Position numbers and translations under genes: made by a program. A stretch of 64,000 bases of DNA. Source: Myxococcota bacterium (GTDB lineage: Bacteria; Myxococcota_A; UBA9160; UBA4427). The notes below the pieces were generated by a model. It searched no databases. It saw nothing but the letters and a program-made list of their open reading frames with translations, and was not told the DNA's origin. The stretch is from positions 1,952,001 through 2,016,000 of the forward strand of contig OZ252299.1 of assembly GCA_965250285.1 (NCBI GenBank). The letters are read 5' to 3'. Shown here one piece after another: positions 11,894 to 21,669 of this stretch (its first letter is position 1; each line of letters begins with the position of its first letter).

Positions 11894-11962
11894 TACGCAC
11901 CAGAGGTACGCTTGTGCGGGTGCGGGGGTTCGCGCCCGCCGCGCGCCATCCGGGGGGATCCA

Positions 11963-13813
11963 ATGCCGAAGACGCTCTTGCTCGCCGACGACAGCGTCGT
12001 CATCCAGAAGCTCGTCGGGCTCAGCTTCGCCAACGAGGACGTCGAGCTGACGACCACGGACAATGGCGACGACGCCATCACCAAGGCCCGCGAGCTGAAG
12101 CCCGACCTCGTCCTTGCCGACGTCGTGATGCCCGGCAAGAACGGCTACGAGGTGTGCGAGACGATCAAGGCCGATCCCCAGCTCGCGCACGTCCCCGTGC
12201 TGCTGCTGACCGGCACCTTCGAAGCGTTCGACGAGAATCGCGCGCGGAGCGCCGGCAGCGACGGCCACATCACGAAGCCGTTCGAGGCCCAGGCGCTCGT
12301 CGACCGCGTGAACGAGCTGCTGGCCCAGGCCCCGGCGGCCCCGCAGCTCGCAACGACCACCCCGACGCTCGACGGCCCGGCCGTGACGCGCATCGCCGAC
12401 ATGCCGCCGGCCGAGAACGACGATTCGTTCGACTTCTTCGAGGATGCTTCCGATCCGCTCGCCCAGGTCGACGCCTCGGGCGAGGTGGCCTCGCCCCCGC
12501 CGCTTCCGGCATCGCCCTCGCCGCTCGAGCCGGCCGCACCCGTCGCGACGCCGGCAGCCGACGCCGGGGCGCCGTCCGCTGCGGCCAGCGTTCTGCCGCC
12601 GCTCTCGGGGGCCGACGACGCCGCGTTGATGCCCGATTCTCCGGCCGCCGCCACACCGCCGATCGACGATCTGGCCTTCGACGCGGATGACCTGACGCCG
12701 CCCGATCCCGCTGCGACGACGGTGCACCTGACCGACGAGGCCGAGCCGGCGTCGGCCGCCGGTGCCGCGCCGACGCGCGACGACGACCTGCTGCTCGGCG
12801 ACGAGGCGGCGACCTGGAACGACGATCTCGAGATCGGCCCGGAGCCGATCCGATCGCCGGCCGGCGACGCCACGCAGCTCTCCGACGATCTGTTCCCCGA
12901 TCCGCCGGCAGCGGCGGCGGCCCCCGTCGATCTCGACGCGGCGATCGCTGAGGACACCGGCGCGAGCGCGCCGGCCTCGGCGCTGGTCAGTGATGGCGAC
13001 CGGTCGAGCGACGCAATCGCATTCGGCGAAGCGTCCGCGCCCGCAGCGCCCGATCCGATGAAGACCATGCTGGCCGACGATCTGTTCAGCGATGCCGAGC
13101 CCGCCGCGCCCGAGACGCCCGCGGCAACGCCCGCCGACCTCGACCTCGACCCGACCTCGGCCCCGGCCGAGAACGTCGCGAGCGACTTCGAGGTGTCGTC
13201 CTCGGACCTCGAGACCAGCATCCCCGCCATGCCGCCGCTCGAGACCGACGCGACCGCCGACGAGCCGTTCTCGCCGCCGACACCGCCCACCCGCACTGAG
13301 CCGAGTGCTTCTGCGCCGCCCGAGCCGGTCACCTCGCCGAAGCCCGAACCGATCGAGATCGAGACGAGCACCGACACGACCGACGATTTCCAGATCTCCG
13401 ACGGTCTGCTCGCAGGCGCTCCGCCGGCGCACGAGCCGACCGACTCGAGCTCGGCGCTCGACGCCGCGCCGGAGGCGCTTGGCACCCCGCAGCAGGCGCT
13501 CGACGCCACGCCGCAGGCGATTGACACCCCGCCGGAGGCGCTTGACGCGACGCCGCAGGCGCTCGACGCCACGCCGCAGGCGCTCACTCCGGCTCCGCCC
13601 GACCTCGGCCCCGATCTGACGCCGATCATGCGCGAGCGTGTGCACGAGACGCTCGAGCGCGTGGCTTGGGAGGCCTTTGCCGACCTCTCCGACACGATCG
13701 TCAAGCAGGTCGTCGAGAAGGTCGAGCAGGTCGCGTGGGAGGTGATCCCGCAGATGGCCGAAGCAGCGATCAAGGAAGAGATCCGCCGCATGAAGGGCGA
13801 GAACGACGAGTAG
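11963..13813 (+). CDS. romR: RomR-like response regulator (receiver, Pro/Asp/Ala-rich disordered linker, conserved C-terminal helix)
   Basis: LLLADDSVVIQKLVGLSFANED receiver; long low-complexity linker; C-terminus VEQVAWEVIPQMAEAAIKEEIRRM resembles the RomR C-terminal motif (AWEVVPxLAE). Confidence 0.75.
   Translation: MPKTLLLADDSVVIQKLVGLSFANEDVELTTTDNGDDAITKARELKPDLVLADVVMPGKNGYEVCETIKADPQLAHVPVLLLTGTFEAFDENRARSAGSDGHITKPFEAQALVDRVNELLAQAPAAPQLATTTPTLDGPAVTRIADMPPAENDDSFDFFEDASDPLAQVDASGEVASPPPLPASPSPLEPAAPVATPAADAGAPSAAASVLPPLSGADDAALMPDSPAAATPPIDDLAFDADDLTPPDPAATTVHLTDEAEPASAAGAAPTRDDDLLLGDEAATWNDDLEIGPEPIRSPAGDATQLSDDLFPDPPAAAAAPVDLDAAIAEDTGASAPASALVSDGDRSSDAIAFGEASAPAAPDPMKTMLADDLFSDAEPAAPETPAATPADLDLDPTSAPAENVASDFEVSSSDLETSIPAMPPLETDATADEPFSPPTPPTRTEPSASAPPEPVTSPKPEPIEIETSTDTTDDFQISDGLLAGAPPAHEPTDSSSALDAAPEALGTPQQALDATPQAIDTPPEALDATPQALDATPQALTPAPPDLGPDLTPIMRERVHETLERVAWEAFADLSDTIVKQVVEKVEQVAWEVIPQMAEAAIKEEIRRMKGENDE
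13454..13585 (+). repeat. 21-bp coding tandem repeat (ALDATPQ-like, 6 copies)
   Basis: ALDAAPE ALGTPQQ ALDATPQ AIDTPPE ALDATPQ ALDATPQ AL. Confidence 0.85.
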
Positions 13814-13915: not shown

Positions 13916-14806
13916 ATGGCCCGAGACGGCCAAGCCGGAATCGAAATCAGCACGCCCCCCGACCCGTCGGGCTTCGACGCGCTCGTCGACCGGGCGATCG
14001 CCGAGGATCTGGGTCCGGGCGACCTGACGAGCGAGCTGACGATCCCCGCCGATGCACGTTGTCAGGCGCGCATCGAGGCGCGGGCGCCGATCGTGACGTG
14101 CGGACTGTTCCTCGCGCGCGCCGTCTTCGACCGTGTCTCGCCCGAGGTCGAGTTCAAGGCGCGCGCACGCGAAGGCGAAGCCGCCGCCCCGGGTCGACGG
14201 CTCGCCGACCTCGAGGGACCGGCGCGCGCGATCCTCGCCGCCGAGCGCACTGCACTCAACTTTCTCGGTCGACTCTCGGGCGTGGCGACGCTGACGCGCC
14301 GCTACGTCGATGCGGTCGACGGCACCGGCACCGACATCGTCGACACGCGCAAGACGATCCCGGGCTGGCGCGTGCTCGACAAGTTCGCCGTGCTGTGTGG
14401 CGGGGGCGTCAACCATCGGCAGGCCCTCTTCGACGGGATCCTGCTCAAGGACAATCACATCGCGGCGGCGGGCGGGGTCGGGTCGGCCGTACGGGCAGCG
14501 ATCGAAGGCGCGCCCACCGACATCCGCGTTCAGGTCGAGGTGGAGAGCCTCGATCAAGCCCTGGAGGCCTGCGAGGCCGGCGCCGACTTCCTGCTGCTCG
14601 ACAACTGCAGCCCGGCTGAGATCGTGGCGATGCGCGAGGCCCTCGCGGGCCGTGCCCTGCTCGAAGCCAGCGGCGGCATCAACCTCGAGAACGTGCGGGC
14701 GTATGCGAAGACCGGCGTCGACCGCATCTCGATCGGCGCCCTCACCCACTCGGCCCCCTGTGCCGACGTCGCGCTCGAGATCGATGCCGTGATCGAGGCG
14801 CCGTGA
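13916..14806 (+). CDS. nadC: Nicotinate-nucleotide diphosphorylase (carboxylating)
   Basis: EDLGPGDLTS, AERTALNFL, DTRKTIPG, LLKDNH, LLDN, EASGGI. Confidence 0.95.
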   Translation: MARDGQAGIEISTPPDPSGFDALVDRAIAEDLGPGDLTSELTIPADARCQARIEARAPIVTCGLFLARAVFDRVSPEVEFKARAREGEAAAPGRRLADLEGPARAILAAERTALNFLGRLSGVATLTRRYVDAVDGTGTDIVDTRKTIPGWRVLDKFAVLCGGGVNHRQALFDGILLKDNHIAAAGGVGSAVRAAIEGAPTDIRVQVEVESLDQALEACEAGADFLLLDNCSPAEIVAMREALAGRALLEASGGINLENVRAYAKTGVDRISIGALTHSAPCADVALEIDAVIEAP

Positions 14807-15819
14807 GCGAAGGCGCAAGGCAGGTATTGGCGGCGCTGCGGTCGGCGGCCGGCGAAGCGCGCTCGGGCGAAGCGCTGTCGAGCGAGCTCGGCGTGTCACG
14901 AGCCCAGATCTGGAAGCACGTGAGCGCGCTGCGCCGACGCGGCTATGAGATCGGGGGCGAGCCCGGGGGCGGCTATCGCCTCGAATCGGTCCCCGATCGG
15001 CTGTATCCAGAAGAGCTCGGGGTCGGGCGTACAGGCCGCTGGCTCGGGGCCGACATCGAGCATCTCGACGAGACCGACTCGACGAACCGCGTGGCGATGG
15101 AGCGCGGGCGCGCCGGCGCGGCCCACGGCTTCGCAGTGGTCGCCGAAGGCCAGACGGCGGGCCGGGGCCGGCTCGGCCGCAGCTTCTATTCGCCGCCGAA
15201 CCTGAACCTCTACACGTCGGTCGTGCTGCGCCCCGACCTGCTCGTGCCGGACGCGTCGAGCCTGATCCTGGTCGCCGGCGTCGCGGTCGCCGACGCCATC
15301 GCCCAGACGATCGGCGACGACGACGCCGTCTCGATCAAATGGCCCAACGACGTTCAGCTCGAGGGTCTCAAGACATCCGGCATCCTGCTCGAGCTCGCTG
15401 CCGAAGAGACTCGGGTGGACTTCGTGGTCATGGGCATCGGCGTCAACCTGAACGTCGAACGCGACGTGTTTCCGGACGAGTTCCGGCACCTCGCCACGAG
15501 CCTGCGCTCGCACACCGGCGACACCGTCGACCGGGCGGCCTTCACCCGCCGTCTCTTCGACACGCTCGAGGATGCGCTCGAGACCCACGAACAGGGCGGC
15601 TTCGACGCCCTGCGCCCCCGCTTCGACCGCCGATTTCGCATGCCCGGCCAGCGCGTCGAGGTGCGGGGGGTCGGCACCCGCGACGGCGAGGTGACGGCCG
15701 GCGTCGTGCGCGGCCTCGCCGACGACGGCGCGCTCGAGCTCGAAGACGAAGCCGGCCGGCTCACGCGCGTGCTCGCGGGCGACGTGACGGTGGTGAAACC
15801 CGACGAGGCCGAGGCGTGA
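14803..15819 (+). CDS. birA: Bifunctional biotin ligase/repressor
   Basis: N-terminal HTH SGEALSSELGVSRAQIWKH; DSTN, QTAGRGRLGR, IKWPND. Confidence 0.95.
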   Translation: MSEGARQVLAALRSAAGEARSGEALSSELGVSRAQIWKHVSALRRRGYEIGGEPGGGYRLESVPDRLYPEELGVGRTGRWLGADIEHLDETDSTNRVAMERGRAGAAHGFAVVAEGQTAGRGRLGRSFYSPPNLNLYTSVVLRPDLLVPDASSLILVAGVAVADAIAQTIGDDDAVSIKWPNDVQLEGLKTSGILLELAAEETRVDFVVMGIGVNLNVERDVFPDEFRHLATSLRSHTGDTVDRAAFTRRLFDTLEDALETHEQGGFDALRPRFDRRFRMPGQRVEVRGVGTRDGEVTAGVVRGLADDGALELEDEAGRLTRVLAGDVTVVKPDEAEA

Positions 15820-16064
15820 GGGGCGCCCGCCGCGAAGCGCGCGAAAGCGGGCGGCCCCGATGACGCGCCCGCCTCACGTCTCGCGCAGGCGCGGTACGCT
15901 CCCGATGGGCGGTCGAGCACGCGAGCGAACCGGCGCCGCGCAGCGACCCCGCCCAGGCATCGCCCGACACCGAGACCGGCCTCGCGCGGCCGCGCAGCCC
16001 ACGGCGGCGCGGGCGTCGCCGCCGGCCTTCGCCTGATCTCCGTCCCGCCCGAAAGGCCCTTCGC

Positions 16065-16853
16065 GTGAGCGACCCGACGCTGCTCGTTATCGATATCGGC
16101 AACACCAACGTGACGCTCGGCGTCTTCGACTACGAGGGAGAGGAGGTCGACCTCTCGCATCACTGGCGCGTCTCGACCCACCGCGAGCAGACGTCCGACG
16201 AGCTGTCGATCACGCTTCACGCCCTGTTCGACCACGAGGATCGGTCGGTCGCGGACGTGACCGACATCATCGTGTCGAGCGTGGTCCCGCCCGTCGTGCC
16301 GGTCTGGGAGCGCGTCTGCACCAAGCTCTTCGGCAAGCCGCCGCAGGTCGTCGGCCCGGGGATGCGCACCGGGATGCCCGTCCGGTACGAGAACCCCCAC
16401 GAGGTCGGCGCAGACCGCATCGTGAACTCGGTGGCGGCCTTCGAGCTCTACGGCGGTCCGATCATCGCCGTCGACTTCGGCACGGCCACGACGTTCGATT
16501 GTGTCTCAGAGAAGGGTGAGTACCTGGGCGGGGTGATCTGCCCGGGGATCCACATCTCGATGGAGGCCCTCTTCGAGCGCGCTTCGAAGCTGCACCGGGT
16601 CGAGATCGCCCGTCCCAAGAGCGTGATCGGCAAGACGACGACGGGCGCGCTGCAGAGCGGACTGCTCTACGGCTACGCCGGGCTCGTCGACGCGATGGTC
16701 GAGCGGATCCGCCCCGAGATCGGCGGCGACGCCAAGGTGATCGCCACCGGCGGGCTGGCCCGCCGCATCGCGAACGAGACCTCTTCGATCGAGAACGTGG
16801 CGCCGTTCCTGACGCTCGAGGGGCTGCGGATCCTCTTCGAGAAGAACCGCTAG
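16065..16853 (+). CDS. coaX: Type III pantothenate kinase
   Basis: IDIGNTN, SSVVP, VGADRI, VDFGTATT, ATGG. Confidence 0.95.
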   Translation: MSDPTLLVIDIGNTNVTLGVFDYEGEEVDLSHHWRVSTHREQTSDELSITLHALFDHEDRSVADVTDIIVSSVVPPVVPVWERVCTKLFGKPPQVVGPGMRTGMPVRYENPHEVGADRIVNSVAAFELYGGPIIAVDFGTATTFDCVSEKGEYLGGVICPGIHISMEALFERASKLHRVEIARPKSVIGKTTTGALQSGLLYGYAGLVDAMVERIRPEIGGDAKVIATGGLARRIANETSSIENVAPFLTLEGLRILFEKNR

Positions 16854-16958
16854 CCGCCGCGCGGTCGGCGGGCGCCCCACGGCCTCTCCCCGCGCACAGA
16901 GCCGCTCAGGGCCGCTCAGGGCCACCTCGTGCCGCTTCGCGAGCGCGCAACTTCCGTC

Positions 16959-16986
16959 TCAATCTCATGCCCGTTTCGGCCGATGT
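16959..16986 (+). promoter_or_regulatory. Putative sigma-28-type promoter TCAA-N16-GCCGATGT
   Basis: TCAA tctcatgcccgtttcg GCCGATGT; shares TCAATCTC with the romR-like promoter. Confidence 0.6.
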
Positions 16987-17047
16987 GCCAATCGGAGGCG
17001 TGCCCTTCGCGCCTCACCGCACCCATCCGCCAGGAGCGCAGCCCGAC

Positions 17048-18115
17048 GTGTCCGAAGAGGCCCCCAAGACTCGCGTCAAGCTCACCCTCTCGCCCCAGGC
17101 TGAGAAGTACGCCCGACGCGACGCCCCGATCGAGGCCCGGCGGATGGCTGCACGCGGTGCCCTGCCCCTCGAGCCGATCGATCTGGCCACCGTGCTCTTC
17201 GCTCTCTCCCACGACGCCGACGCCGAGGTCAAGTCGACGGCGCGTGCGAGCCTCGACAACCTACCCGAGCACGTCCTCGAGCCCGTGCTCGTCGGTCCGT
17301 CGCATCCCCTGCTGCTCTCGTACCTCGCGCGCGTCCACCGCGAGAACGAGGGGCACTGCGAGAAGCTCGCGCTCAATGCGGCGACCGACGATGCGACGAT
17401 CGCGTTCCTCGCCAGCCTGCCGCTGCGCCGGGTGGTCGACGTCGTGAGCAACAACCAGCAGCGGATGCTGCGCTGCGAAGAGATCGTCGATGCCCTCGGC
17501 GCCAATCCGCTCACGGGTCGCGCCGTCATCGAGCGCATCCTCACGTTCCTCGGGCTCGATCACGAGGACGAAGACGAGGCGAGCGAGGAAGTACTGAGCG
17601 CAGAGGCGGCCGAGCAGGCCGTCCTCGCGTTCCTCGGCGACGAGAACCCCGAGATTGCGAAGCTCCTCGCCAGCGAAGACGAGCTCGACGACGAAGCGCT
17701 CGAGGGCAACCTGTTCGCTGCGGTCCAGAAGATGAGCGTGATGCAGAAGATCAAGCTCGCACGCGTGGGCGGCAAGGAGGCGCGCTCGCTGCTCATCAAG
17801 GATCGGAACAAGATCGTCGCGACGTCGGTGCTCGGCAGCCCGAAGATCACCGAGACCGAGATCGTCGCCATCGCCAACTCGCGCGGCGTGAGCGACGAGA
17901 TCCTGCGGCTGATCAGCTTCAATCGCGATTGGACCAAGAGCTATCAGATCAAGCTGGCCCTGGTGATGAACCCCAAGACCCCGACGCCCCAGGCCGTCAA
18001 GTTCATCAACTACCTCCAGGACAAAGAGCTGCGTTCGCTGATGAAGAGCAAGGACGTCTCGACGCAGATCTCCACCCACGCCCGGCGAATCCTGCAGAAA
18101 AAGGGCAAGATCTAG
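17048..18115 (+). CDS. Hypothetical alpha-helical repeat (HEAT/LRV-like) protein
   Basis: GTG at 17048 after AGGAG; KIKLARVGGKEARSLLIKDRNK and ALVMNPKTP helical repeats. Confidence 0.75.
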   Translation: MSEEAPKTRVKLTLSPQAEKYARRDAPIEARRMAARGALPLEPIDLATVLFALSHDADAEVKSTARASLDNLPEHVLEPVLVGPSHPLLLSYLARVHRENEGHCEKLALNAATDDATIAFLASLPLRRVVDVVSNNQQRMLRCEEIVDALGANPLTGRAVIERILTFLGLDHEDEDEASEEVLSAEAAEQAVLAFLGDENPEIAKLLASEDELDDEALEGNLFAAVQKMSVMQKIKLARVGGKEARSLLIKDRNKIVATSVLGSPKITETEIVAIANSRGVSDEILRLISFNRDWTKSYQIKLALVMNPKTPTPQAVKFINYLQDKELRSLMKSKDVSTQISTHARRILQKKGKI

Positions 18116-18199: not shown

Positions 18200-19408
18200 A
18201 TGGCAGGCACAGCGGACGCAGGCGAGGTCAACGCGCGCATCGTCTACTGGGGCGTCGAAGGCGGCGGCAAGACCGCCTGCATCGAGACGATTCACGCCAA
18301 GCTGCGCCCGGACCATCGTGGCGAGCTGAAACGCGTGCCGACTCGACTCGACCCCACCGTCGTCTACGACGAGCTGCCCATTGCCCTTGGCAACGTCCAG
18401 GGCGCGCGCACGCAGCTGCAGATCGTCGCCGTCCCCGGTGGTCCCGAGCACGCAGCGACACGCAAGCAGCTCCTCGATCGCGTCGATGGCGTCGTGATCG
18501 TGATCGATGCCGATCCCGCACGTGCCGAAGAGAACGCCTCGTCGGTGGACGAGCTGCGCGACAGCCTTGGCGCGTACGGTCGCTCGCTCGCAGAGATCCC
18601 GTTCGTCGTGCAGTACAACAAGAGCGACCTCGGCGACCCCTACGAGACCGAAGCGCTCCACAAGCGGCTCGGCTTCGGTTCGGCGCCCGTATTCGAGACC
18701 ACGGCGCATCAGGGCCAGGGCGTGCTCCAGGTCTTGTCCACGATCTCGAAGAGCGTGGTCCGCGCGCTTCGCGAAGGGCGAACCGCCGAGGCTGCGACGC
18801 CTGCGGCCCCGCCCCCGCCGCCGGCCACGCCCACGACCACGCCCACGCCCACGCCCACGGCCAAGCCGGTGACCCCGCCGACACCCAGCCCCACGCCCAG
18901 CCCCAAGGCGACGCCGACCCCGGTCGCTGCCGCCGCTGACGACTCGTTGATGGATCCGGGCACACCGCTCGCGATGGACGGCACGGCCGAGCCCGCGACG
19001 CTCGAGCCGATCGCCGAGACGGTGGTCGACCTCGACCTGCCGGGGAGCGCGGAAGTGCTGCTCGAGGCCGAGCCGGTGGGCGCGCCGCCGGCAAGCGATC
19101 CACGCAGCGTCATGGAGGCCGCGATCCTGAGCGAAGGCGCCGGTGTCGCCGAGGCCGACGCCGCCGACGCGGCCGCGAGTGCGACCGAGAACGCATTCGA
19201 TCGCCCCTGGTCCGAGCTCGCCTCGGAGAAGCCGGCACCGGGCGCGCGCTTCGGCGCCGACCTCCGCGTCGTATCCGTCGGCGTGGCCGAGCGGGCCGGA
19301 GACCGCGGCGTCAAGGTGCCGCTCGTACTCGGAAACGACGACGGGGAGACCCTCACGGTGGCGCTCACCGTGCAGCTCGATCCCCTGCTCGAGGACGAGA
19401 CCACATGA
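18200..19408 (+). CDS. MglA-like small GTPase with degenerate catalytic residues and a long C-terminal extension
   Basis: EVNARIVYWGVEGGGKT, VPGG, RKQLLDRVDGVVIVID and QYNKSDL are colinear with MglA; Pro/Thr linker and C-terminal domain. Confidence 0.8.
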   Translation: MAGTADAGEVNARIVYWGVEGGGKTACIETIHAKLRPDHRGELKRVPTRLDPTVVYDELPIALGNVQGARTQLQIVAVPGGPEHAATRKQLLDRVDGVVIVIDADPARAEENASSVDELRDSLGAYGRSLAEIPFVVQYNKSDLGDPYETEALHKRLGFGSAPVFETTAHQGQGVLQVLSTISKSVVRALREGRTAEAATPAAPPPPPATPTTTPTPTPTAKPVTPPTPSPTPSPKATPTPVAAAADDSLMDPGTPLAMDGTAEPATLEPIAETVVDLDLPGSAEVLLEAEPVGAPPASDPRSVMEAAILSEGAGVAEADAADAAASATENAFDRPWSELASEKPAPGARFGADLRVVSVGVAERAGDRGVKVPLVLGNDDGETLTVALTVQLDPLLEDETT

Positions 19409-21669
19409 CTCGCCGGCGCGTCGGACTTCACGGCGTCGGCCCCCAGTCGGCGCGCCTGCTGCAGCAGCTCTTCGAGAACCCCGACCTCGAGTGGGTCCGG
19501 CTGTACGACGAGGATCACGACCGGGCCACCGAGGCGCTCGCGGGTGTCGACGTCGCCCTGCTCGAGCGCTGCCGCCCGCTGATCTGCTCACGCTGGGACG
19601 AGTTCGCCGCCGACCCGCCCCTCGATGTCGTCATCGACGAGGGGCATCTGCCGGCGCTGCGCGAGCGCCTCTCGGGCTCGGGCGCGGAGGGTCCCCAGAT
19701 CCTCTCGCCCCAGACGGCGCGCCTGCTCTGGTCGCATGGCCCGCAGCCCGGCGACCGCAAGACCGAGCTGCTCGATGTGCTCGGCGAGATCGTGCGGAGC
19801 GTCGATCTCACCGTCGACGGCAAGGAGCTCTTCGCGCGGATGCTCGAGATCGCGGTGGCCGTGACCGGCGCATCGGGTGGTTCGCTGATGCTGCTGGGCC
19901 CCGAGCGCGACGAACTCTTCATTCAGGTCGCCTTCGGCGTCGAGCCCGAGCTGTGGTCGAAGATCCGCGTGCCGCTGGGCGACGGCATCGCCGGCCAGGT
20001 CGCCGCCGAGGCTCGGCCGATGATCGTCGCGGGCCGCGCCGACGCCGAGCGCTACCGCATCGTGCGGGAGCGTGTCGACGTCGCATCGGCGCTCTGCGTC
20101 CCGCTGGTCCACGACGGCCGCGTCCTCGGCGTGCTCAACCTGCATCATCACACGCGCGCCGATGTGTTCGACGAGCACGACCTCGCGTTCATGGAGGAGC
20201 TGGCCGCGCTCGACGCGGCGATCATCCAGCGCGTGCAGGCCCACGCCGAGCTACGCGCTCAGGCCGCCCGCTACGCCGCGACGCGCGAGGTGCACGCGCT
20301 GCTCGCCGGCCCCGATCCCCTGCCCGAGCGGCTCGCTGCGATCTGCCGCGTCGTGGCCCGCCGACTCGGCGACGGCATCGCCACCCTGTATCTGCCCGAC
20401 GACGCGTCGGACGACGGCCCCTTTGCGCTTGCAGCGAGCTCGCTGCCTGGCGGTCACGCCGGCGCGCGCACGGCCGTCGAGCGGGGCCACGGCCTCGACG
20501 GCGAAGCCGCGCGCACGGGCGAAGCCATTCTGCTGCGCAACGAAGACGGTCGCCTGCGCTACGCCGCCCTGCCCCTGCCGCACGAAGGCCGCACCGAGGG
20601 CGTCCTCGCCGTTCAGGTCGGACACCTGACGGGCGACCCCGACGAGCTCGAGGCGAACCTGCTCGAAGTCGCCGCCGTCATCGCGGACGGCGTCGCTCGG
20701 ACACGCCGCGAGGCCCGCGCTACGGCCCACGCCCTGCGCGTCAGCGCCGCGCACGAGGCGGGGACGCGGCTGCTCGATCACACCGAGCGCGAGACCATCG
20801 CGCACGCGGCGAGCGCCTCGCTGTCGATGCTGCTGGGCGCCGAGCACGTGGTCGTGCGTCTCGAGGATCCGGCGAGCCGACGCTTCCGCATCGACGCCTA
20901 CGTCGGCAGCGCCGACGAAGACGCCCAGTACGCACTGTTCGCCCTCGACAAGGCCGCGACCATCGAGACGATCCGGCGCCGGACGATGCAGCTCGTGCGT
21001 GACCTGCCCGGTCACCCGAAGCTCGGCGCATGGGCGGGTCCGGTCGCTTCGATGATGTCTTCGCCCCTCAAGATCTCGGGGCGCATCGTGGGCACGATCG
21101 CGATCTACGAGAAGCTCGCGGCCGAATCCTTCTTCTCGGGCCGGTTCAACGAGGACGACCTCCAGGTGTTCTCCCACTTCATCGGCAACCTCGAGCGCGC
21201 GCTCGGTCAGGTCTGGCAGCCGACCGACGCGGCCGACGATGCGCTGATCAGATGGCGTGAACGCATCGCCCAGGAGCTGGCCCGTGCATCGAGTCGGCCG
21301 GGCGCGTTGGCGCTGGCGATCTGCTCGATCGACGATCCGCAGCCGCTCCGCGATGCCGGCCCGGAGCATATCGACGAAGCCATGAGGCGGATCGAGTCCG
21401 CACTCGAGCTCGAGCTGCGCAGCTTCGATGCGATGGTCCGGCTCGACGACCACCGCTTCGGCCTGCTGCTCCCCGAGCCGCATCCCGACGCCGGGGCCCA
21501 CGTGCGCAGGTTGGCACACGCCGCGAGCGAGCGCGTGATGCAGCAGGACACACCGGCCGACGCCGCGCGCATCGTTCTCGCGTTCGGCTTCACCGAGAAC
21601 GGACCGAACGAGATGGACGGCGTCGCGCTCGAAGAACGCGCGAGCGAACGCCGCATCGTCATGGTCTAG
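19405..21669 (+). CDS. Multi-GAF protein with N-terminal Rossmann-like segment and degenerate GGDEF-like C-terminus
   Basis: GDGIAGQVA and SALCVPLVHDGRVLGVLNL (GAF); RSFDAMVRLDDHRFGLLLP where RxGGDEF is expected; ATGA overlap with upstream gene. Confidence 0.75.
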   Translation: MTRRRVGLHGVGPQSARLLQQLFENPDLEWVRLYDEDHDRATEALAGVDVALLERCRPLICSRWDEFAADPPLDVVIDEGHLPALRERLSGSGAEGPQILSPQTARLLWSHGPQPGDRKTELLDVLGEIVRSVDLTVDGKELFARMLEIAVAVTGASGGSLMLLGPERDELFIQVAFGVEPELWSKIRVPLGDGIAGQVAAEARPMIVAGRADAERYRIVRERVDVASALCVPLVHDGRVLGVLNLHHHTRADVFDEHDLAFMEELAALDAAIIQRVQAHAELRAQAARYAATREVHALLAGPDPLPERLAAICRVVARRLGDGIATLYLPDDASDDGPFALAASSLPGGHAGARTAVERGHGLDGEAARTGEAILLRNEDGRLRYAALPLPHEGRTEGVLAVQVGHLTGDPDELEANLLEVAAVIADGVARTRREARATAHALRVSAAHEAGTRLLDHTERETIAHAASASLSMLLGAEHVVVRLEDPASRRFRIDAYVGSADEDAQYALFALDKAATIETIRRRTMQLVRDLPGHPKLGAWAGPVASMMSSPLKISGRIVGTIAIYEKLAAESFFSGRFNEDDLQVFSHFIGNLERALGQVWQPTDAADDALIRWRERIAQELARASSRPGALALAICSIDDPQPLRDAGPEHIDEAMRRIESALELELRSFDAMVRLDDHRFGLLLPEPHPDAGAHVRRLAHAASERVMQQDTPADAARIVLAFGFTENGPNEMDGVALEERASERRIVMV

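Follow-up and report, generated by a model that had tools for sequence, protein, structure and literature searches.

A long MglA paralogue without the MglA catalytic pair, encoded beside a probable rasA gene, is a predicted pseudo-GTPase

Can a protein of the MglA family that lacks the residues with which MglA hydrolyzes GTP still be a GTPase switch, and if it cannot, what might its G domain be for? This question is raised by an open reading frame in the window, by which we mean the whole 64,000-nucleotide stretch of a Myxococcota genome (contig OZ252299.1) that was analyzed. A sequence-only reading of this DNA had proposed that the encoded protein is a GTP-binding, non-hydrolyzing pseudo-GTPase scaffold. 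The genes and protein segments on which the argument depends are the following, with positions counted within the window.

11957 to 13813, + strand: RomR-like receiver protein, encoded on one flank of the locus throughout the class
13916 to 16853, + strand: nadC-birA-coaX block, which anchors the locus (gene neighborhood)
16967 to 18115, + strand: helical-repeat (alpha-solenoid) protein, the most constant neighbor and by synteny the likely orthologue of M. xanthus RasA
18200 to 19408, + strand: long MglA paralogue of 402 amino acids, a predicted pseudo-GTPase (homology and structure matches)
18218 to 18781, + strand: its MglA-type G domain, residues 7-194 (PDB MglA, E 1.7e-33; Z 25.6)
18251 to 18277, + strand: P-loop GVEGGGKTA, with E20 at the MglA G21 position and the Lys and Thr kept
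18350 to 18358, + strand: switch I DPT, with Pro52 in place of the intrinsic Arg finger R53 and the Thr kept
18431 to 18442, + strand: G3 motif VPGG, with Gly81 for the catalytic Q82; Ala77 stands for T78
18617 to 18628, + strand: G4 motif NKSD, intact in this copy by alignment to MglA
18791 to 19099, + strand: linker, rich in Pro, Thr and Ala and then acidic, predicted to be disordered (low pLDDT) and variable in length
19100 to 19396, + strand: two helices, then a small beta domain at the C terminus (residues ~350-395), the hallmark of the long-MglA subfamily
19405 to 21669, + strand: triple-GAF protein with a degenerate GGDEF domain and an RxxD I-site (RSFD, 21418-21429), a likely c-di-GMP receptor

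The order of the locus is romR-like, nadC, birA, coaX, helical gene, GTPase, triple-GAF gene. M. xanthus MglA (PDB 5ymx) aligns to residues 7-194 of the window GTPase without a gap (E 1.7e-33), and this alignment pairs the MglA motifs GPGLCGKTT, DRT, VPGQ and NKRD with GVEGGGKTA, DPT, VPGG and NKSD, respectively. All four of the features picked out by the sequence-only reading, namely G21 replaced by Glu (E20), R53 by Pro (P52), Q82 by Gly (G81) and an intact NKSD, are present in it. T54 is retained as T53, F56, F59 and T78 are also substituted, and the G3 motif reads AVPGG, compared with TVPGQ in Group 1 MglA. An AlphaFold model of the protein has a pLDDT above 90 in the G domain. Structural comparison places MglA first by two methods: the best Foldseek match is MglA bound to GTPgammaS (6h17, rmsd 1.9), and VIA-align, applied to residues 6-194, ranks 5ymx at the top (Z 25.6, rmsd 2.1, 190 residues aligned), with the next family at Z 17.8. 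The Pro/Thr linker and the roughly 200 extra residues described earlier are likewise there: an extension of ~208 amino acids follows the G domain and consists of the linker (27 Pro, 17 Thr and 19 Ala in residues 198-300), an acidic stretch, the two helices and the beta domain. The beta domain (~350-395) is conserved and has a pLDDT of 90-96 in the model; it has no sequence match in the PDB (best E 3.9), and the ESM Atlas gave no usable match. Besides the window GTPase, the genome holds two further genes of the MglA family, namely a canonical mglA beside mglB and a SofG-like orphan in which DRT and TVPGQ are intact. The orphan is labeled SofG-like by its motifs rather than by comparison with a named sequence; in a quick tree of 126 rows it lies on another branch than the window GTPase.

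Pro52 is present in 119 of the 120 top homologues of the window GTPase, the remaining one having a gap, and Gln82 is present in none of them, indicating that the substitutions arise neither from chance nor from sequencing error. The class to which the genome belongs provided 66 distinct loci, 44 from the window's order (the window included) and 22 from a sister order. Arg53 occurs in one of these orthologues and Gln82 in two, never both together (0/66), and Pro occupies the R53 position in 42 of the 44 from the window's order. The 30 closest canonical MglA proteins, by comparison, all have both residues. When 151 genomes of the class were searched with the GTPase, 146 gave some match and 131 (a hand count) scored above the band of canonical MglA (E <= 1.3e-40); a few genomes or genera were without a match. 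The orthologue matches are open frames without stops that encode proteins of 260-402 amino acids, and for the G domain 11 of 12 hand-chosen close pairs give a dN/dS of 0.07-0.25, the twelfth being saturated. Surface motifs are invariant across the 120 homologues, and a patch with the pattern K-L-[RK]-x-x-[HF]-R-G is common to the long forms, unlike canonical MglA. Mean identity is 0.55-0.57 among the orthologues versus 0.91 among the 30 canonical proteins. Random decay, which was to have counted against the earlier proposal, is rejected on the open frames, the conserved substitutions and the dN/dS values. Compensating Arg or Gln residues, which would also have spoken against it, are not conserved among the orthologues; the sole candidate for a replacement finger, Arg49, was rejected, being replaced in 9 of 44 proteins of the window's order and 13 of 22 of the sister order. 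We conclude that the loss of the MglA catalytic pair is old, lineage-wide and under purifying selection. One genome of the class has two degenerate paralogue copies (G086:C185 and G086:C405), possibly a binning effect, the contamination of that genome being 4%.

In T. thermophilus MglA, the Q82A substitution abolishes and the R53A substitution reduces both intrinsic and MglB-stimulated hydrolysis, and MglB itself supplies no catalytic residue but binds to an interface on MglA made of Leu55, Phe56, Phe57 and Phe59 (PMC3199381). Given that Arg53 and Gln82 are both absent, the window GTPase is predicted not to hydrolyze GTP, and we regard this loss, taken alone, as very probable on the strength of the sequences and the published mutants. 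The non-hydrolyzing part of the sequence-only reading thus stands in that the absence of the catalytic pair is a conserved feature, and the loss of the reaction itself is deduced from sequence and from those mutants. Since two of the three Phe residues of the MglB interface (F56 and F59) are replaced, MglB is also predicted not to dock well. The replacement of G21 by Glu, which had been counted as evidence, carries little weight, given that this position is variable (Glu in 20 of 44 orthologues from the window's order) and that the active GTPase Arf5 has Asp there.

The window copy may bind nucleotide, as GKT, Thr53 and NKSD are kept. GK[ST] is found in 28 of 44 orthologues in the window's order and in 13 of 22 in the sister order, and NKxD in 41 of 44 and 1 of 22, respectively. 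The P-loop Lys is lost in 16 of 66 (7/44 and 9/22), where Thr, Val, Met or Leu replaces it; the Mg-binding Thr26 position is Arg in 7 of the 44, and the switch-I loop of the sister order carries deletions. GK[ST], Thr54 and NKxD are jointly present in 23 of 44 orthologues of the window's order, in 0 of 22 of the sister order and in 0 of 20 copies from the class of Geobacter, described below. Because the binding motifs are lost in many orthologues, a GTP-locked state would not be the state of the family: the function its members share cannot, as judged from these motifs, need a GTP cycle, and the description of the protein as GTP-binding and GTP-locked, while possible for the window copy, is too specific for its relatives. 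The family apparently contains intact, binding-only and non-binding members.

The intact members were found in a profile search, which recovered many long MglA proteins that have GKTT, DRT, TVPGQ and NKRD and whose C-terminal domain is that of the window GTPase (best profile E 2.6e-11). An intact long MglA gene lies directly after the helical gene in 6 of 80 loci examined, and Arg53 and Gln82 are both present in all six proteins; the patterns used to find these controls demand an intact P-loop and switch I, so that the controls prove existence and not frequency. Their loci have coaX and a fusA-like gene in three cases, the GAF gene in two and a neighboring mglB in none. The sequence-only reading had noted correctly that no mglB adjoins the window GTPase, which is flanked by the helical gene and the GAF gene, with mglBA elsewhere in the genome. 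As evidence for lost catalysis this absence fails, since the six intact syntenic orthologues have no neighboring mglB either; the same comparison suggests that orphan status is older than the loss of catalysis. The ancestor of the window gene, as domain content and gene order further indicate, was a long MglA that carried the small beta domain at its C terminus and was encoded behind coaX, a fusA-like gene in some loci, and the helical gene.

The long forms make up one clade apart from canonical MglA, with an SH-aLRT of 99 in a quick tree of 37 long and 7 canonical rows; these 44 rows were drawn from the 126, the catalytic columns were dropped, and the long-branch sequence L110 and the SofG-like rows were left out. 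An AU test of one loss against two finds a single clade of degenerate forms compatible with the data (p-AU 0.63). L110, which belongs to the same phylum as the window but to a different class, is itself a syntenic and degenerate long MglA. Several other members were seen in passing. Two that have this C-terminal domain and lie on another branch of intact long MglA are encoded behind a TPR-like gene and not the helical gene (L123:4893-7290 and L125:4947-7077). Long intact MglA genes from Ignavibacteria (L170) and Zixiibacteriota (L200) have mglB downstream rather than upstream. Four further degenerate long MglA proteins are 411-569 amino acids long (P0164, P0167, P0170 and P0195); three have DPT and branch next to the window's class, and P0195 lies apart.

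A second large group of degenerate members comes from the class of Geobacter argillaceus, where 20 third paralogues occupy the same block and the helical gene was detected beside 19 of them. These copies have Thr54 in 0 of 20, Arg53 in 3, Gln82 in 2 and both catalytic residues in none; NKxD is present in 9, the beta2 residues F56 and F57 are kept in all 20, and a GAF gene was found beside 0 of the 20. The 291-residue long MglA of G. sulfurreducens is a member of the subfamily (36% identity; C-terminal domain profile E 1.9e-5) in which Arg53 is retained, Thr54 is replaced by Leu and TVPGQ reads TVQGE. We take this protein (cluster P0290) to be the Geobacter orphan entered in two published catalogues, equating them by species, length and locus tag. 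That orphan, 'MglA2', is given with its length and orphan status as NP_952979.1 in Table 2 of PMC3000849 and as GSU1930 in the supplement of PMC4316618. It shares with the window GTPase the subfamily, the C-terminal domain, the gene order (as seen in G. argillaceus, L216) and the absence of Gln82, and differs from it in its other lesions, in retaining the beta2 Phe residues and in its locus, which has a SPOR gene before the helical gene, mgtC after and no GAF gene. A gene for a SPOR-domain membrane protein precedes the helical gene at L216:7013-8134 and also in two intact loci (L126:47-775 and L142:4152-4958); the window has none. No main-text paper naming the tag GSU1930 was found, and a long MglA with dead catalysis is nowhere described in the literature searched, which stopped short of supplement file 1 of PMC4316618 and of preprint supplements. 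Thus, the Geobacter gene is already catalogued and its catalytic loss is apparently undescribed.

What, then, might a G domain of this kind act upon? The helical gene is directly upstream of the GTPase gene in all 66 loci of the class, in 19 of 20 Geobacter-class loci and in all six intact loci, and in 59 of the 62 class loci measured its stop lies no more than 10 nt from the GTPase start, mostly with a one-base overlap. The window is an exception to this tight coupling, with a gap of 84 nt. The model of the helical protein is an alpha-solenoid with only generic ARM/HEAT matches (TM <=0.25); DUF2336 is not among the best 25 of the 28 Pfam families listed for it. Its gene was matched in 174 of 201 genomes of the phylum. 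A Myxococcaceae genome has the homologue (E 1.4e-101) behind coaX, facing a frzS-like receiver/coiled-coil gene, and Anaeromyxobacter has the same arrangement with one TPR-like gene between coaX and the homologue. In M. xanthus, rasA is MXAN_4150 and frzS is MXAN_4149 (bioRxiv 10.64898/2026.08.28.747804). Given this synteny of coaX, the helical gene and a frzS-like gene, the helical gene is probably rasA. Mutants of rasA resemble those of EPS regulators and have motility and EPS phenotypes, and the role of the gene is described as unclear (bioRxiv 10.64898/2026.08.28.747804). A canonical mglB-mglA pair stands directly upstream of the helical gene in one genome (L231:2189-2779, G249), and in two others (G185 and G205) a canonical mglA lies ~4-5 kb from it, a hint that the helical protein may have to do with GTPases of the MglA family at large.

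The start of the GAF gene overlaps the GTPase stop (ATGA), and this gene lies downstream of the GTPase in 55 of 66 class loci and two of the six intact ones; it is absent from the other 11 class loci, of which two are at contig ends. RxxD is present in 34 of 36 GAF proteins and GG[DE]EF in 0 of 36. An RxxD that is kept where GG[DE]EF is not is the pattern of a c-di-GMP receptor, which, on these motifs, the GAF protein is likely to be. The N-terminal 110 residues of the protein (19405-19740) form a conserved domain that has no Pfam match, begins by eye like a beta-alpha Rossmann fold and is also found in the intact locus L127. Elsewhere in the locus, the long linker of the RomR-like protein, made of Pro, Ala and Asp, ends in short ALDATPQA-like repeats (12900-13620). 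Many relatives (L037:11332-13398 is one) carry an EF-G-like gene, a fusA paralogue, in the interval from coaX to the helical gene, as do Geobacter-class loci and three of the intact ones; it is absent from this interval in the window (16853-16967) and in some close relatives. That interval of the window, the site of the fusA-like gene in relatives, holds a short direct repeat, GCCGCTCAGG twice (16915-16940).

Taken together, we favor, with a probability of about 0.6, the reading that the GTPase is a hydrolysis-dead, fixed-state adaptor that partners the RasA-like protein and, in the class, the c-di-GMP receptor. An MglA-derived G domain without Arg53 and Gln82 would not hydrolyze GTP; nucleotide may still be bound by the window copy and would be dispensable for the function of the family; and MglB would no longer dock, the beta2 residues Phe56 and Phe59 being replaced. 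Gene context points to the RasA-like helical protein as the likeliest physical partner and to the GAF protein as a lineage-specific c-di-GMP input to the adaptor. The genetics of rasA, together with the Bdellovibrio hub discussed below, would suggest a role in the control of pili, exopolysaccharide or polarity, while canonical mglBA would keep doing the switching. Several observations weigh against this adaptor. The claim of partners derives from gene order in a block that holds housekeeping genes, so that the synteny is perhaps partly inertia; the helical gene usually has no GTPase behind it (among 20 loci from outside the class, most of them listed, an MglA-like gene follows it in one, L110); the GAF gene is missing beside the 20 Geobacter-class copies and in 11 of 66 class loci; and the window copy retains GKT, the Thr and NKxD.

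That last observation would suit a permanently GTP-bound, 'always on' mimic of MglA that recruits or sequesters MglA effectors or regulators, as would the joint retention of the three motifs in 23 of 44 orthologues of the window's order, the GTPgammaS-bound form of the top Foldseek match and the F56 and F57, residues that bind MglB, which all 20 Geobacter-class copies keep. The Bdellovibrio MglA, which has a natural S21 and no MglB, has been interpreted in this way (PMC3983030). However, the GTP affinity of MglA is ~100-fold lower than its affinity for GDP (PMC3199381). Furthermore, the GDP-state structures of MglA fit the model nearly equally well (rmsd 2.0-2.2), F56 and F59 are mostly replaced within the window's order, and the binding motifs are lost piecemeal across the family. 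We therefore consider such a mimic unlikely.

DPT without the Gln resembles Rap-type GTPases, and a Pro before the switch-I Thr is the normal state in Ras and Rap. A real switch of the Rap kind, in which either a GAP such as the helical protein contributes the missing catalytic residue in trans or the nearby Arg49 takes the place of the finger, would fit this resemblance, and the helical protein does have invariant Arg and Glu and near-invariant Asn residues. Arg49 is present in 96 of 120 homologues, and Arf5, with its Asp at the G21 position, is active. The title of a paper cited in PMC4316618 also speaks of Rap-RapGAP hydrolysis that proceeds without Gln and Arg. Against this stand the replacement of Arg49 in the orthologues noted above and the consideration that a conserved catalytic cycle would not be expected to survive loss of the P-loop Lys in 16 of 66, Arg for Thr26 in 7 of 44 or loss of NKxD in 21 of 22 sister-order proteins, which makes this reading decidedly doubtful.

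The EF-G-like gene, which separates coaX from the helical gene in many class loci (one of them translated), in the Geobacter class and in three intact loci, raises the prospect of a module in translation or cofactor housekeeping rather than surface motility. This seems improbable, given that the gene is absent at this point in the window and in several relatives that keep the GTPase and that motility and EPS phenotypes are known for the likely RasA orthologue (bioRxiv 10.64898/2026.08.28.747804). Finally, the heterogeneous motif losses, the divergence faster than that of canonical MglA and the few genomes or genera without a match could be those of a decaying G-domain remnant in which only the C-terminal beta domain, or nothing, matters, but stop-free frames, low G-domain dN/dS, invariant surface motifs and retention of the gene in two distant groups make this very improbable.

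Returning to the adaptor, we would venture, as a tentative proposal that may well be wrong, that a Ras-like switch turned into a nucleotide-independent scaffold, possibly twice (once in the window's class and once in that of Geobacter, where the lesions differ), with the active form persisting elsewhere, and that this scaffold links RasA to a c-di-GMP input beside MglA/MglB. If true, bacteria would hold a natural series from an active GTPase through a binding-only form to an empty pseudo-GTPase. The Arg finger has been held to be universal in Group 1, and one whole long subfamily has nevertheless lost it in two large groups, under selection. The family offers a bacterial pseudo-GTPase for which active orthologues serve as built-in controls, a route to testing through G. 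sulfurreducens, a cultured model organism that has a member, and a candidate partner for RasA, the role of which is called unclear in bioRxiv 10.64898/2026.08.28.747804.

Among known systems, Group 1 MglA of M. xanthus and Thermus thermophilus (5ymx, 6h17, 3t12) has the same fold, GxxxxGKT, switch-I Thr, VPG turn and NKxD as the window GTPase, with ~36-37% identity in the G domain, whereas the window protein is without Arg53, Gln82 and Thr78, has Phe56 and Phe59 replaced, carries a 208-residue extension, is not coupled to mglB and belongs to a separate clade. The Arg finger next to the G2 Thr is said to be conserved in all members of Group 1, which are defined as single-domain proteins of <=240 amino acids typically coupled to mglB, and sequences longer than 240 amino acids were left out of that motif analysis (Wuichet & Sogaard-Andersen 2014). 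MglA Groups 2-5 have Thr for the Arg and a GTPGQ G3 motif; the window GTPase instead has Pro and AVPGG. SofG of M. xanthus is likewise an orphan MglA homologue with a C-terminal extension, but it keeps the Arg finger and is active.

The Bdellovibrio hub of MglA(S21), the TPR protein Bd2492, RomR and CdgA resembles the present locus in that its MglA is presumed to hydrolyze poorly and has no MglB, its partner is a helical-repeat protein and its receptor, CdgA, has a degenerate GGDEF domain (PMC3983030). The Bdellovibrio protein, however, is a canonical MglA with one substitution in a genome from which mglB is gone (PMC3983030), whereas the window encodes a paralogue without the whole catalytic set, in a genome that keeps mglBA, and its putative partners are unrelated to those of Bdellovibrio and encoded side by side. 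Eukaryotic pseudoGTPases, such as the AAGAB psGD, similarly use the GTPase fold as a protein-binding surface after loss of the G motifs, and class i of these comprises proteins with neither binding nor hydrolysis (PMC12490416). The window protein likewise has a GTPase fold without the catalytic motifs; it comes from an unrelated lineage, and its family, unlike those, spans intact to apparently non-binding members. MglA and the pseudo-GTPase are thus both known kinds, and what is apparently new is this family as a pseudo-enzyme.
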